Under the pieces are notes generated by a model, which worked only from the letters and a program-made list of their open reading frames with translations, was not told the DNA's origin and made no database searches. The translations under genes were made by a program, and so were the position numbers. Positions 5,354 to 62,142 of a stretch of DNA of 64,000 nt are shown in pieces (position 1 is the first letter of the stretch; the number at the start of each line of letters is the position of its first letter). This stretch comes from Eledone cirrhosa (taxonomy: Eukaryota): positions 14,942,001 to 15,006,000 of the forward strand of contig OZ024748.1 in NCBI GenBank assembly GCA_964016885.1, in the 5' to 3' direction.

Positions 5354-5446
5354 ACGTGTCTGAGGAATTTGTGAATCTAGAGTGAGGTTCGAGCCACAAA
5401 CAGATCGCACCTCAAGCTGTTCACCGGAGAAACAATTGTAATACGT
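5354..5446 (+). ncRNA. Type-I hammerhead ribozyme-like motif with long stem II and palindromic stem III
   Basis: ACGTGT-CTGAGGA-(GTGAA..GAGGT..ACCTC..TTCAC)-GAAA-CAATTG-TA-ATACGT. Stem I is 6 bp, ACAATTGT is palindromic, the triplet is GUA, and AATAAA follows at 5447-5452. Confidence 0.75.
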
Positions 5447-5559
5447 AATAAATTGTGTTCTGATGTATCACTGATTCCTCGTTTTCCATATTTTATATAT
5501 ATATATAGTTTTTCTATCAACTAAAATGTTATTTTGTAGGCTTAGCTACAATGAAAATA

Positions 5560-5822
5560 TAAAAGTGAGAGAAAACATAAACTGAGAGATTTGTTTTAGC
5601 ACAGCCAATTAGGGAGAGAATCAAACTAGGTGAAATGCAGTTTAGTTTTGTGCCAGGGGGTTGAACAACAGATGCACTTTTCTTAGAGAGACGACTACAT
5701 GAGAGGTTCCTATCTACACAGAGTTCTACAATCTTTCATCTGGTGGTCCTTAAAGAATGGCTTGTGAGAGCAATGCAAGATATGTAAAGAGGAGCTGTTA
5801 TTAAAATAAGAGATTGATGAAA
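5560..5822 (+). pseudogene. RTE-clade LINE RT remnant
   Basis: Translates as IRERIKLGEMQFSFVPG..TTDAL..RRLHERFL..IWWSL..EWLVRAMQDM*RGAV, resembling the RTE motif QFGF.PGRGTTDAIF..RQLQEK. Confidence 0.75.
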
Positions 5823-6164
5823 TAAGTAACTAATTTAAAAATTAAGTATGATTGACTAAATACAAGGGGTACACCAGCATGGCCACAATCTAATGAGTGA
5901 AATTAGTAAAAAATTAAAAAAAGGATTATAGTTTGCTTGCCCTTAATATGAGAAGAACAGAGACTGTTTATAATGAGAACACAATACGAAACAGTAGAGA
6001 ATACATATTTAACACAATTTCTTCTGAAAAAAAACCCATCCAGTTTGCCCTACAGGGGCCAGCCACAAAATAAAATTATTTTTATTACACACAAACACAC
6101 ATACACATATATATATACACACACACACATATATATATACACACACACATATATATATACATAT

Positions 6165-6330
6165 GTAGTTGATGACTGATAGAAAAGAGTACTCAATACC
6201 AAAGTAGAGTTGAAATATTTATTTTATTTAGGCTAGATAGTTGGCTTTTATCTGATGATCCTTGGATAAACAGGCAAAATTCCAGAGCACAAAGACTCAC
6301 TATTTAGCCTTAATAAGATGGATATATATA
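6165..6330 (+). mobile_element. Decayed hammerhead-bearing fold-back mini-element
   Basis: CTGATGA at 6252-6258 is followed by TCCTTG..CAGG and a degenerate GAAA. An inverted tail carries GAGTACTCAATAC (6187-6199). The 3' part is shared with the 30510-30590 family. Confidence 0.5.
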
Positions 6331-58284: not shown

Positions 58285-59190
58285 TACATATATATATATA
58301 TATGTATACATATATATACATATATATATATACATATATATGTATACATATATATATATATATATATGTATATATATATATATATGTATATATATGTATA
58401 CATATATATATATATATATGTATACATATATATATATGTATATATATGTATACATATATATATATATGTATATATATATATATATGTATATATATGTATA
58501 CATATATATATATATATATGTATACATATATATATATGTATATATATGTATACATATATATATATATATGTATACATATATATATGTATATATATGTATA
58601 GATATATATATATATATATGTATACATATATATATATATATATGTATATATATATATATATGTATATATATATATATATATGTATACATATATATATATA
58701 TATATATATATATATATATATGTATATATATATATATATGTATATATATATATATATATGTATACATATATATATATATATATATATATATATATATATA
58801 TGTATATATATATATATATGTATACATATATATATATATATATATATGTATACATATATATATATGTATACATATATATATATATGTATATACATATATA
58901 TATATATATATATATATGTATACATATATATATATATATGTATACATATATATATATATATGTATATATATATATATATGTATACATATATATATGTATA
59001 CATATATATATATATACATATATATATATATATGTATATATGTATACATATATATATATATATATATGTATATATGTATACATATATATATATATATATA
59101 TGTATATATGTATACATATATATATATATATATATATATGTATATATGTATACATATATATATATATATATATATATATATGTATATATA
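58285..59190. repeat. ~0.9-kb interrupted (TA)n array
   Basis: TA with TG and TGTATACA interruptions. Confidence 0.95.
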
Positions 59191-60608
59191 TCATACATGC
59201 TATATATATACTCATATTCTATACATCCCACATATTTATATATACTCAATATTCTATATGTTCTAAGTTAAATCTTTTCACTGCAAGACTTTCCACAACA
59301 AGGCACATTTCTCATATAATGGACATACACACACATAAATAAATATATATATATATATATATATATATACATACACACACACACACGGATATATATATAT
59401 ATATATGTGCGTGTGTGTGTGTTCTATGTATACGTTTTATGTATTCTAAGTGAAATCTTTTCACTCCAAGTCTTCCATAACTAAGCACATTTCTCTTATA
59501 AGACACATATACACACATATCACACATATATATTGATAACATTATTGCCAACACCCTATTAATCCTAATTTCATTTCCCTTCTCCACACACCATTTCTTC
59601 CGTCACTCACTCACACTTTTGCTTTCATTTCTATATATATATACAAACACATACACATACCCATCTCATGCAAGCATGGAAACAAAAAACGGTAGTAAAA
59701 TGAGAACACACACACACATTCTTTTTTTTTTTTGCATATTTCTATTAATTCAACTTCAGGAAAAAGTGGAACTACATGAGGATTCAGTAGCAGTCAACCA
59801 CATATACACACACACACATATCTATATACACACAATTTAAATAAATATATGAGAGCTAGTGATAATTTAATATGTTGGTCCTTGGTTCCTTCCCAACATG
59901 ACTATGTATTTTCTATAGATATTGACTTTCAGTACTCCAGAATGGGCTTGCTTGACAAACCTACAAATGATATAAACACTACCCTCTCTAACCATTTCCC
60001 TCTTTATTTAGTTTAATAAGTATATGAATTGTGATATAGTATATTAACCATTTTGAGGCGAGCCTGGCCCAAAACCCAGCTTTGGTTCTGTGAAACAGAA
60101 CCACCCATTTTAAAGGGTTCCTATTTATATTAAAAACATACAACATAACTTTATACAGGTACCATATATTAAGATGCGATCTTTTTTGGAATCAATTGAC
60201 AAGATCTCAGATCTCATTATCTTACAAAGTGGCATGGAACTCCTTGAATCGGACAAACGAAACAAAGTTTCTATTGGTCTTTCCACAGCTGATAGTATCT
60301 ACCAGTCACAACTCCTGGAAGAAAGAGCAATATGAAATAAAGTGTCTTGTTCAAGAGCATAATGTTTCACCCAGTCCTGGAATCAAACTCACAACCTTAC
60401 AATTGGGAACCACTAAGCCTCATGCCTTCACTATCTTAGTAATGTAATATCAAATAATTTCAGTAAGTCCCTCAAAACACTTCATTAAATAATTTAAGTA
60501 GAGTTCATTTCATTATAAAAGGGTTAAATGAAATATGAGGATACAATTATATAATACAACCGGCATTTTTAGGCCATTTTCTCTGCTAAAGTTTCATTCA
60601 CATTATGG

Positions 60609-60935
60609 TGTCCTTTGGGTTGCAATGTTTCATGGTCAGATGCCTTTTTGGCTGCAATGTTTAATGGTCAGATGTCCTTTGGGCTGCAATGTTTAATGGT
60701 CAGATGTCCTTTGGGTTGCAATGTTTAATGGTCAGATGTCCTTTGGGCTGCAATGTTTAATGGTCAGATGTCCTTTGGGTTGCAATGTTTAATGGCCAGA
60801 TGTCTTTTGGGCTGCAATGTTTAATGGTAAGATGTCCTTTGGGTTGCAATGTTTAATGGTCAGATATCCTTTGGGTTGCAATGTTTGATGGTCAGATGCC
60901 CTTTGGGCTGCAATGTTTGATGGTCAGATGCCCTT
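60609..60935. repeat. 32-bp minisatellite x10
   Basis: Unit TGTCCTTTGGGYTGCAATGTTTAATGGTCAGA with no spacers. Confidence 0.95.
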
Positions 60936-62054
60936 CCAAGTGACAACTCTTTTATAACAAGCACAGCAATATGTATGCATGATTTATTTTAAGCTAGTCT
61001 AATTGAGTGTATGTGCCATGAAATTGTGACTGGCAACTGATTCCTGATAAATATACTCTCTACATTATTCGTTCTTTGCTTTTGTGAAGCAGGTCTTGGT
61101 CTTATTTTACAGTTGAATTGTCTATGTTAAATAAATACTTCAAGAACAGAAGTAGAATGTATAGAAAATAACAACAAGAATGACAACATGAACAATCCAC
61201 ATTTATGAATACAGATATAATTTATTTGTTAATTAAGAAAAATTTCAATGAGAGTGGTCATATTTTCAGATGCACACTGTGTTGTTAACTGAAATATATA
61301 AGATAACACTTTTGCTTTTATTTTATAATTATTCTCATAATAATTGAGCAAATATACATGTAGTTTTGTCTCAAATTAATGAAATTAAATGTATGTATAT
61401 GTATGTGTGTGTGTGTGTGTGTGTGTATATATATACATACATACATATATATACATATAACACATATGCTTATATCTATACAAATATAGCAATACGTGCT
61501 AGTAAATTTATGTATAATTAACCATGTCTAAATCAGTTAAGTATAACTGCATGAACAAAATTCTCTCTGTGTGTGTGTATGTATATATATATATGTGTGT
61601 GTGTGTGTGCGTAAATACACACATATACATAGTGAATATGGAAATTATGTAGTTAAATATAAGCTCGAAATCTACTGGAAGTCGGTAATAAATTTTGTTC
61701 ATTTCATTTAATTAATCAACTAAAGTACAGCAGCCAAGAAAAAATATATGAATAATAATATTAGCATGAATAAATTCACACCTAATGTGATTATTCTGTT
61801 GTTATTGTTGTTGTCATTGTTATGGTTATTATTGTTGGTATTGAAGAGGAAGTCAATAGGATTGGTTTTATGAAGTTACTACTGTTTAGAATATATCCAT
61901 GGAATACATATAAATATACACACACACACACACATATATATATATATATATATATATATATATATATATATATATATATACATATGTATCTAAGTATGCA
62001 TGTATATAATAAGAAGATAGTGGAGATGTTACATAGGAGATTTATTGCTTAATC

Positions 62055-62142
62055 CTGATTAGAAATGTTTTCCAAGCATCTGGCTCGTGATCTGGAATGG
62101 CACCCCAGACCAGACTCCAAGACCTTCTGATCCTCAGACCAG
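62055..62142 (-). ncRNA. Hammerhead-like motif with long stem II
   Basis: The reverse strand reads CTGGT-CTGAGGA-(..TGGTCTGGGGT-GCC-ATTCCAGATCA..)-GAAA-ACATTTCTA-ATCAG, with AATAAA at 62041-62046. Confidence 0.6.

Follow-up and report, generated by a model that had tools for sequence, protein, structure and literature searches.

Hammerhead families beside (TA)n tracts in Eledone cirrhosa are probably 5'-truncated Penelope-like element insertions, mainly of the Hydra clade

The window analyzed here is the whole 64-kb stretch of DNA. It carries hammerhead-like motifs at or near all 21 positions given in the original prediction, where minus-strand coordinates mark a point near the GAAA/stem III end, 35-90 nt from CUGANGA. 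As predicted, the sites fall into many unalignable families: the 21 represent 16 dispersed families, and one more, family J, was absent from that list. First-look genomic candidates numbered 300-4,570 for 15 families and 21 and 122 for two weak ones. The insertions are as follows.

5219..5490, plus: family M 3' end; core 5360, with a stem I of 6 bp, a stem II domain of 62 nt, and a palindromic stem III; its short end runs into (TA)n
6165..6345, both arms: family E head-to-head insertion; inverted tailed arm with tail hairpin 6187-6210 (minus); sense-arm core 6252 with decayed GAAA
10074..10300, minus: family F, an old family (~82% identity); hammerhead of minimal type, core 10190, with CpG decay here
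15522..15706, minus: young family C 3' end (99%); intact hammerhead, core 15621; likely Hydra-type RT/EN upstream in locus L076
18179..18406, both: family A head-to-head insertion; cores 18335 (minus) and 18345 (plus), fixed U4A; tail hairpin 18214-18263 (minus)
22625..22935, minus: family K, an old family; core 22903, 60-nt stem II domain; stem I broken here; tail hairpin decayed
23018..23072, plus: family R; F-like core, decayed; most aligned copies with a deviant GAAA block
23107..23540, plus: family B; inverted short arm ~23113-23183; sense arm with intact minimal hammerhead 23285; no tail hairpin
23560..23749, both: family J head-to-head insertion, truncated within stem II; tail hairpin near 23603-23630 (minus)
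24637..24830, plus: family N; short, retrozyme-like unit with terminal redundancy; hammerhead of canonical size, core 24671 (U3/A8 in this copy)
25206..25390, both: decayed head-to-head copy of family D
28463..28661, both: second family A insertion; core 28600; tail hairpin 28485-28534 (minus)
29115..29263, plus: decayed family J copy; tail hairpin 29212-29239
30512..30600, minus: second family E copy; core 30579; stems partly decayed
32155..32275, plus: family S; F-like core; A15.1 not A in aligned copies
33400..33990, plus: family I 3' end; core 33733 with U.U at 10.1/11.1; hairpin 33846-33909 in the tail; its long end runs into (TA)n
33992..34136, plus: family D, a short element whose start lies immediately 5' of stem I; hammerhead 34006 intact, U.U at 10.1/11.1; tail with hairpin
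42611..42735, minus: older relative of family C; intact hammerhead 42707
48258..48428, plus: family G short element; core 48324, 30-nt stem II domain
48445..48608, plus: family Q; core 48459, fixed A9U; 82-nt stem II domain (67 here); likely Hydra-type ORF upstream
48815..49025, minus: family H; intact hammerhead 48908
49109..49174, plus: truncated arm of family A; GAAA damaged
62000..62310, minus: family P; core 62137, 60-nt stem II domain; stems decayed here

The type-I hammerhead order (CUGANGA, GAAA and NUH with stems I-III) is present in the window, with family-level folds in A-Q, and stems I-III form in families that have no sequence in common. The bare CUGANGA heptamer was not enriched (22 in the window, 19.5-22.8 in shuffles). 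Complete type-I hammerheads with the exact core numbered 8, compared with 0.26 ± 0.50 (maximum 2) across 200 dinucleotide shuffles, the control that the original prediction had proposed. Allowing three family-fixed core variants, picked after the families had been seen, gave 14 complete folds versus 2.55 (maximum 9) in shuffles. Two of these 14, at 41229 and 40045, look like chance. A stricter descriptor, with no extra nucleotide after A9 and no mismatch at 10.1/11.1, recovered only 3 hammerheads.

Eleven of the 21 listed positions passed the relaxed descriptor. The predicted motif set was thus confirmed in part: complete folds are enriched, but ten listed copies fail (6252, 22815, 23025, 24665, 25322, 30545, 32185, 33729, 49109, and 62055). 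Eight of these come from families with at least some completely folding copies in the genome and are themselves decayed or atypical; the other two (23025 and 32185) belong to families with a deviant GAAA block in most aligned copies. The expected 20 or so cores therefore reduce to about 11 intact-looking folds, with about half of the window copies decayed. Proximity to (TA)n was as claimed, with 20 of 21 sites lying within 250 nt of a tract versus 51% of background positions (p = 1.8e-5). An Rfam scan showed no hammerhead among the matches listed (150 of 454), where microRNA models on TA repeats dominate. A CUGANGA-bearing repeat (9780-10010 and 29481-29530) was considered and left uncounted, as no GAAA is conserved in its 18 aligned rows.

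Among genomic copies, 14 of the 16 listed families attain a complete ribozyme fold at least sometimes. Complete folds were counted in 9/12 copies of M and 3/15 of K; the hammerhead scores of other families were C 25/25, Q 12/12, I 17/18, G 12/15, H 11/15, and P 5/12. Family F retained all core nucleotides in 10 of 17 copies. The variant core of family A occurred in 29 of 29 copies, with U4A in every copy examined; A9U was likewise present in every Q copy examined. No RNA record was listed as carrying family C. Family J, whose core has a U3-A8 covariant pair, scored 0/25 because most of its copies are truncated and stem III is interrupted. Several families have stem II domains of 24-82 nt. The description of these motifs as minimal, with a short stem III, suits B, F, and N; elsewhere stem III is mostly 4-5 bp.

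The window itself holds no Penelope-like element (PLE) reading frame, as originally stated: tblastn with 24 PLE-like segments returned only short matches to non-coding frames. Upstream extension, which the original prediction had put forward as a check, did find RT/GIY-YIG frames elsewhere in the genome for families A, B, C, and Q and for the unlisted J. In all five, a single ORF with RT and GIY-YIG lies upstream of the hammerhead on the same strand, and every frame is broken. Family A has a same-strand EN ending ~950 nt upstream in 6 of 29 loci, together with a 341-aa RT-thumb/EN frame. ORF pieces were found on the same strand in 11 of 19 family B loci and upstream in 5 of 12 family Q loci, the latter with RWK, DKT, and CxCX5C. 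The family C locus L076 contains an RT with DKT and YRDD plus an EN, and family J has an ORF upstream in L225 and L329.

Motif content suggests that four of these five families (A, C, J, and Q) are likely Hydra-type and that B is likely Nematis-like. The Hydra-clade motifs RWK and DKT both occur in L330 (family Q), with DKT also in L076 (family C); Q and C are the two Hydra-type families whose frames show that region. A C-terminal EN with the CxCX5C linker, no CCHH, and CxxC plus CxH around conserved E and N was present in A (L327), J (L329), Q (L330/L333), and C (L076). Family B instead combines a CX2-5CxxC linker with CCHH in the EN, which are Nematis/Neptune features compared by eye, without a tree; its window copy would correspond to the 3' UTR of such an element. 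Pfam scores of the linked ORFs were weak (GIY-YIG, E 0.006; RVT_1, E 0.008), and their Atlas neighbours were animal RT/GIY-YIG-type clusters (0.95-0.97). Naiad-clade traits, namely an N-terminal EN and no canonical hammerhead, were not seen in the linked families, where ENs are C-terminal and hammerheads complete. No same-strand PLE ORF lay within 1.5 kb upstream in the 12-20 best copies each of D, E, F, G, H, I, K, M, N, and P, and clade membership for these ten rests on ribozyme form, ends, and hairpin.

Most families show the hallmarks of PLE insertion: 5' truncation, an inverted 5' arm giving head-to-head pairs, an optional tail, and two 3' ends adjoining (TA)n. Two clusters of 3' ends were mapped in A, B, C, D, G, I, J, N, P, and Q; the reference copy lacked a tail or had a mutated one in C, E, G, H, K, and M. 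Short/long pairing within head-to-head insertions was judged by eye from individual copies. Families I, M, and P reach 380-780 nt upstream and have ragged 5' ends. The elements of D, E, G, H, and K seem short, their 5' ends lying near the ribozyme. Family N looks like a ~330-nt, terminally redundant non-coding unit whose tail repeats its own start. Its upstream homology is at most 236 nt; inverted arms and matches between families (H, D, and I rows) confound such lengths, which serve only as upper bounds for C, E, G, K, and N. No head-to-tail tandem units were seen for A-M, P, and Q in the copies read, and N, likewise judged by eye, continues into a next unit in some. The earlier idea of non-coding mini-elements or retrozymes fits only a minority (short D, E, G, H, and K; redundant N). 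Family A was also considered as a fixed-length palindromic mini-element, which proved an artefact of a two-armed query; with a one-arm query most matches extend upstream, three over the full 1.5 kb examined.

In 10 families a covarying bulged hairpin, formed by a 4-bp base, a 2-nt 3' bulge, and an inner stem, begins 5-12 nt beyond the short 3' end. Among tailed arms it was found in J (22/22), I (15/17), C (11/14), E (6/8), A (18/29), P (4/7), M (3/7), Q (3/8), K (1/4), and D (16/34, a count that includes a related family), compared with a frequency of at most 0.01 in shuffled tails. A strict descriptor failed in G (0/5) and H (0/4), and family B had the hairpin in 0 of 27 tailed arms. Genome-wide, the pattern matched 103,506 times versus 2,765 in the reversed control. 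Watson-Crick pairing at inner positions outside the pattern was 0.74, 0.74, and 0.58, compared with 0.41, 0.49, and 0.29 for shuffled partners, across 66 distinct matches that are related copies rather than independent events. G-T and T-G pairs also occur at inner stem positions. Past the long end, a second hairpin follows at 6 nt in 2 of 4 family J copies that continue, and by eye in the family Q locus L330, where the tail also appears to run on into the ORF start and doubles as a 5' UTR. Only 5 of 30 unbiased pattern matches had a complete hammerhead upstream by descriptor (control, 1.8%). The hairpin is thermodynamically weak: of six window copies, three had it as their minimum-energy fold (z -1.41 to +0.65).

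Because five families run into PLE RT/GIY-YIG frames, the hammerhead repeats are likely 5'-truncated PLE insertions, and the sites likely mostly PLE ends rather than retrozymes. The central inference of the original prediction, that several (TA)n-specific PLEs are involved, is supported: A, B, C, J, and Q are 3' ends of RT/GIY-YIG elements, and most families carry PLE hallmarks. We hold with considerable confidence that the ~16 families are 5'-truncated, mainly Hydra-clade PLE insertions, in which the hairpin likely sets the RT start and some short families are likely passengers. The element RNA would run from 3' UTR through hammerhead to a tail with which the next tandem unit begins, as seen by eye for Q. 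Once the GIY-YIG endonuclease had nicked (TA)n, copying by the RT would begin at either of two internal positions, as in vitro work on a lizard Poseidon element showed (PMC11167929), and this would yield the two 3' ends observed. Copying from both nicked strands would produce the observed head-to-head pairs, and most cDNAs would stop early, leaving stubs of 130-600 nt that contain the hammerhead.

The position and covariation of the hairpin suggest that it may be an RNA signal bound by the RT, and it likely positions internal initiation in the Hydra-type families. Two families have amplified with fixed core changes (U4A and A9U), so hammerhead cleavage is probably dispensable for copying. Families D, E, G, H, K, and N likely spread as non-autonomous passengers, relying on the same enzymes. 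PLE reverse transcriptases are the sister group of telomerase. A broader proposal is that across Hydra-clade PLEs a twice-repeated hairpin, bound by this telomerase-related RT so that copying begins a few nucleotides upstream, explains the two ends and the one-sided tail and also serves short passengers, with hammerhead catalysis dispensable, given that young families fixed for U4A or A9U go on spreading; we regard this as about evenly poised between right and wrong.

Chance matches in AT-rich repeat DNA could account for a heptamer at background frequency and for ten listed copies that fail the complete descriptor, but not readily for eight complete folds where 0.26 are expected, for family-level folds across unrelated sequences, or for the links to PLE ORFs. 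This explanation is exceedingly improbable and is refuted for the motif set; it could still hold for 23025 and 32185 as ribozymes. Alternatively, most families could be non-LTR retrozymes, circular-RNA replicons cut by hammerheads and inserted in trans by PLE enzymes. Family N resembles these in its canonical-size hammerhead, limited upstream homology, and self-repeating tail, copies of D, E, G, H, and K start near the ribozyme, and a recent preprint proposes, in its accessible part, a PLE origin of animal retrozymes (bioRxiv 10.64898/2026.07.22.740005). Yet five families lead into PLE ORFs, ragged 5' ends lie well upstream in I, M, and P, and the seeming mini-element of family A is a truncated long element. 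The available text of PMC7229834 defines retrozymes by head-to-tail arrays, and the copies here stand alone or head to head. We therefore consider a retrozyme origin for most families improbable.

For the hairpin, the question is where it acts. It could be real and work on the DNA side, through the endonuclease at resolution of an insertion intermediate, or as promoter or 5' UTR, with the RT start set otherwise nearby. The tail of the D. virilis Penelope element is needed for endonuclease recognition on plasmid DNA, as recounted in the part of PMC11167929 available; the family Q tail is also a 5' UTR; and the hairpin is weak as naked RNA, its 3' strand lying within a near-palindrome. Tolerance of G-U pairs in the stem, however, is expected for RNA, and a promoter element would not need to recur once past each of two ends. 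The short end is also formed in copies without the hairpin, which implies that the hairpin must have acted on the template. A DNA-side or expression role is thus possible and somewhat doubtful, and we favor the hairpin as a guide to RT initiation.

The system itself is known, being the Hydra clade of Craig et al. 2021 (PMC8557442) plus a Nematis-like family. As far as the accessible parts of that paper go, Hydra-clade PLEs with such hammerheads in (TA)n include an octopus element (Hydra-1_Obim, Octopus bimaculoides). They share with our families RT followed by GIY-YIG, the motifs RWK, DKT, and CxCX5C, and an EN with CxxC and CxH and no CCHH. Also shared are (TA)n insertion, a type-I hammerhead near the 3' end, 5' truncation, an inverted arm, and a one-sided tail. 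The ribozyme form matches their File S2, often with U.U at 10.1/11.1, a 4-bp stem III, and H17 = A/U. Our families differ from those elements in their longer 3' UTRs (A, C, J, and Q: 0.7-1.7 kb), in the stem II domains of 24-82 nt and 8-nt palindromic stem III of several families, in the fixed U4A and A9U cores, and in tails of ~60-170 rather than 30-40 nt. At least 11 Hydra-like families occur in one 64-kb window. The tail hairpin has no mention in the text of PMC8557442 available, yet it can be recognized by eye in three of the six novel Hydra consensi published there (Hydra-2_Amil, Hydra-2_Ajap, and, twice and at the 5' end, Hydra-1_Ajap). In these coral and sea cucumber consensi a G-C base pair replaces A-U; it is not recognizable in Hydra-1_Amil or Hydra-1_Obim. 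The searchable literature, whose coverage excludes subscription papers (e.g. Arkhipova 2006, 2017) and Repbase notes, holds no description of it. Family B, which lacks the hairpin, was likened by eye to the Nematis/Neptune-type PLEs of Fig. S2 of the same paper.

Other systems agree in part, within the portions of the sources available. For the lizard element Poseidon_Ac (Frangieh et al. 2024, PMC11167929), two internal RT initiation sites shown in vitro bound a tail located where pLTR and ORF meet, cleavage and extension take place on both strands, and hammerhead mutants still insert. Minimal PLE hammerheads (Cervera and de la Pena 2014, PMC4209133) likewise form many variable families per genome, mostly as solo motifs left by truncated PLEs, with an extra nucleotide after A9, a U3-A8 covariant core (as in J), and palindromic stem III. 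Here, by comparison, minimal or canonical forms are confined to B, F, and N, and the G10.1-C11.1 pair, highly conserved there, is missing from A, D, E, H, I, and M. Metazoan non-LTR retrozymes (PMC7229834; bioRxiv 10.64898/2026.07.22.740005) share with family N the canonical-size hammerhead and ~330-nt non-coding unit; they are defined by head-to-tail repeats and circular RNA, whereas our copies, known from DNA, are mostly solo or inverted.

The density of at least 17 PLE-type families in 64 kb is notable. More than 100,000 genome-wide matches to the tail motif suggest that Hydra-clade elements form a large, under-annotated part of this genome, and they may help to seed or split its (TA)n tracts. 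The fixed core variants of amplifying families amount to a natural experiment on whether cleavage by PLE hammerheads is required. A covarying hairpin at a fixed distance from both ends is a mutable candidate signal for the choice of internal RT start, and it offers a handle with which to search for Hydra elements in other animals.

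The window (positions 14942001-15006000 of a contig in a 3.0-Gb animal assembly) had a GC content of 32% and was dense in (TA)n. Bare CUGANGA was at background, with 22 occurrences versus 19.5-22.8 in shuffles. The shuffle comparison proposed in the original prediction showed strong enrichment of complete type-I hammerheads: five versus 0.017 expected with a stem II domain shorter than 45 nt (60 shuffles), and eight versus 0.26 (maximum 2) with a domain of up to 90 nt (200 shuffles). Admitting three family-fixed core variants gave 14 versus 2.55, with 2 of the 14 chance-like. 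Among 21 positions named as hammerhead-like cores, 11 satisfied the complete-fold descriptor and 10 did not. The suggested (TA)n association was borne out, as 20 of the 21 lay no more than 250 nt from a (TA)5 or longer tract, versus 51% of background (p = 1.8e-5). The sole candidate in the window for a permuted hammerhead (compare PMC10085705) was an old repeat family at 9780-10010 and 29481-29530, in which a hairpin is followed by CUGANGA; GAAA was not conserved across 18 aligned rows, and the candidate was set aside.

Self-comparison and searches of the species' own genome resolved the 21 positions into 16 families (A-I, K, M, N, P-S), consistent with the many families proposed; family J, overlooked at first, was added. 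Examination covered the best 8-30 loci of each search, a choice that favours query-like copies.

Repeat families around the hammerhead motifs. First-look numbers are search candidates, not copy numbers; the last column gives examined copies with all family core nucleotides (core) or the complete fold (fold).
Family; first-look candidates; intact copies
A; 969; 29/29 core
B; 2,081; 15/19 core
C; 838; 25/25 core
D; 2,679; 11/20 core
E; 1,078; 1/20 fold
F; 2,538; 10/17 core
G; 2,205; 12/15 fold
H; 868; 11/15 fold
I; 4,570; 17/18 core
J; 1,106; 0/25 fold
K; 300; 3/15 fold
M; 2,600; 9/12 fold
N; 2,152; 5/12 fold
P; 658; 5/12 fold
Q; 2,596; 12/12 fold
R; 21; GAAA block deviates
S; 122; GAAA block deviates

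Only families B, F, and N had minimal or canonical hammerheads. Stem II closed with a mismatch in A, D, and I (U.U), E (C.C), and H and M (A.A), and its domain reached 60-82 nt in K, M, P, and Q. Stem III was 8 nt and mostly palindromic in C, G, H, I, K, M, P, and Q, such that pairing between two RNAs could also occur. Every copy examined carried the core change U4A in family A and A9U in family Q. Six family J copies extended to the core, with a 5-bp stem I; this core has a U3-A8 pair, as described for minimal Penelope-like element (PLE) hammerheads in the consulted part of PMC4209133.

No PLE coding sequence was found in the window, as originally reported. Elsewhere in the genome, long copies of A, B, C, J, and Q ran on the same strand into reverse transcriptase (RT)/GIY-YIG frames, supporting the proposal that these repeats are products of several (TA)n-specific PLEs. 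At family C locus L076, DKT, YRDD, and CxCX5C motifs accompanied an endonuclease (EN) whose end lay 1.66 kb upstream of the ribozyme, and the intervening UTR was shared with a second locus, L077. The EN end lay ~950 nt upstream in 6/29 family A loci (frame seen in L327). Frames also lay upstream of family J (L225/L329) and in 5/12 family Q loci, with RWK and DKT in L330. These motifs are those given as diagnostic of the Hydra clade in section 11 of PMC8557442, parts of which also describe (TA)n insertion, hammerheads of this form (File S2), and one Octopus bimaculoides family. Family B had a YVDD RT, CX4CX2C linker, and CCHH-type EN upstream in 11/19 loci, and by eye appears Nematis-like. All PLE-type frames seen were broken, with weak Pfam matches; Atlas neighbours of the linked frames were animal RT/GIY-YIG-type clusters. 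No same-strand ORF appeared in the 1.5 kb upstream at the loci examined for D, E, F, G, H, I, K, M, N, and P. For the set as a whole, a PLE origin is very probable.

Other PLE ORF pieces lay beside unrelated insertions at L048:1-1266 (minus strand), L034, L062, and L078, including a YLDD-type RT (Pfam RVT_1, E 4e-7) and further Hydra-type endonucleases; they show that PLE families exist beyond those sampled in the window. Stubs of PLEs were often inserted in each other's TA flanks.

Insertions were PLE-like: 5' truncation was ragged, arms lay head to head, and the two 3' ends (short and long) adjoined (TA)n, an anatomy drawn in section 6 of PMC8557442. Two 3'-end clusters were present in A, B, C, D, G, I, J, N, P, and Q. 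Printed copies of D, E, G, H, and K started near the ribozyme, and these families may be non-autonomous. Family N is short, its tail (the stretch between short and long ends) repeating its own start; it is the best retrozyme candidate. Family A is a cautionary case, having looked like a fixed mini-element until one arm alone served as query. In families A and J (L001-L030, L219-L243), the ribozyme was often the site of the head-to-head junction, which lay inside stem II for J and just 5' of stem I for A; junctions of E were at stem I. This placement suggests joining through the ribozyme's own self-complementary stems.

Tails of unrelated families shared a motif forming the 3' side of a hairpin, which starts 5-12 nt past the motif marking the short end. 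The 4-bp base of the hairpin pairs RCTC with GAGY, a 2-nt bulge lies on its 3' side, and the inner stem varies by family. Tailed arms contained it in C (11/14), I (15/17), J (22/22), E (6/8), D (16/34), M (3/7), Q (3/8), K (1/4), A (18/29), and P (4/7), versus a rate of at most 0.01 in shuffled tails. The strict descriptor found none in G (0/5) or H (0/4) tails, where looser forms were seen by eye; B (0/27) and N (0/7) tails lacked it, and no tail was found in family F. Genome-wide, RCTC-N(8-30)-TTGAGYRCTY matched 103,506 times versus 2,765 for the reversed control. Among the first 30 matches on contig 1, (TA)4 followed within 200 nt in 23 (control 23%) and a complete hammerhead lay upstream in five (control 1.8%). 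Inner positions unfixed by the pattern paired at 0.74, 0.74, 0.58, and 0.53 versus 0.41, 0.49, 0.29, and 0.35 for shuffled partners, figures inflated because the 66 distinct matches from examined loci are related copies. Inner-stem swaps were U-A/C-G and A-U/G-C. In 2/4 family J copies that continue beyond the long end, a second hairpin began 6 nt after it; by eye, L330 of family Q showed tail, second hairpin, and ORF start in succession. Among published consensi, also by eye, Hydra-2_Amil and Hydra-2_Ajap had the same hairpin with a G-C base, Hydra-1_Ajap had it twice at the 5' end (base G-C), Hydra-1_Crog had a looser form, and Hydra-1_Amil and Hydra-1_Obim had no clear one.

We slightly favour the hairpin as an RNA start signal for RT. 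Counting against a hairpin, it was weak as naked RNA, forming the minimum-energy fold in 3/6 window copies (z -1.41 to +0.65). In a lizard Poseidon element, according to the consulted part of PMC11167929, the tail lies between two internal sites at which RT starts, cutting and extension take place on both DNA strands, and hammerhead mutants remain able to insert. By analogy, a start-signal hairpin would act after EN nicks (TA)n: RT would bind it and begin a few nt 5' of it, the first hairpin giving the short end and the second the long end with the tail. Early termination would leave stubs bearing the hammerhead, and head-to-head insertions would be two joined cDNAs. Hammerhead cleavage is probably dispensable.

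The system is real and mostly known: it comprises the published Hydra clade and a Nematis-like family, perhaps with a retrozyme as well, and the window's families are new members. For Octopus vulgaris, a recent annotation lists Penelope-like families that are active, with neither hammerheads nor Hydra mentioned in the part consulted (PMC13282606). No description of the tail hairpin was found in the open-access literature searched. The main value lies in the hairpin, which can be tested, and in the core variants U4A and A9U, fixed in their families.

Other features of the window were as follows. The SINE arrays presumably resemble octopus repeats, and we take the 189-nt unit to be an octopus SINE.
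8040-8811, 14283-15095, 36418-36845, 43791-44277, 52595-53047: tandem arrays of the 189-nt SINE-like unit
2775, 9144, 27791, 31460, 46922: solo copies of this unit
24127-24247: further tail-motif site, a decayed palindrome with tail
55136-55146, 3072-3136: two orphan tail motifs, no visible hammerhead
28694-29087: 394-nt inverted repeat (97%) with central (TA)n, an inverted SINE pair flanking a microsatellite, head-to-tail-free; arms of a SINE-like family with further copies at 24294-24467 and 29756-29907
17463-17523/17782-17842: 61-nt direct repeat either side of a TA-rich stretch
54304-54491: small MITE-like element, 32-nt terminal inverted repeats, TA tracts either side
60609-60935: 32-nt minisatellite, 10 copies
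55709-59210: degenerate (TA)n array, 3.5 kb, strong C-over-G skew
58182-58284: 103-nt near-perfect palindrome within this TA array, possibly a further head-to-head PLE insertion lacking a recognisable hammerhead
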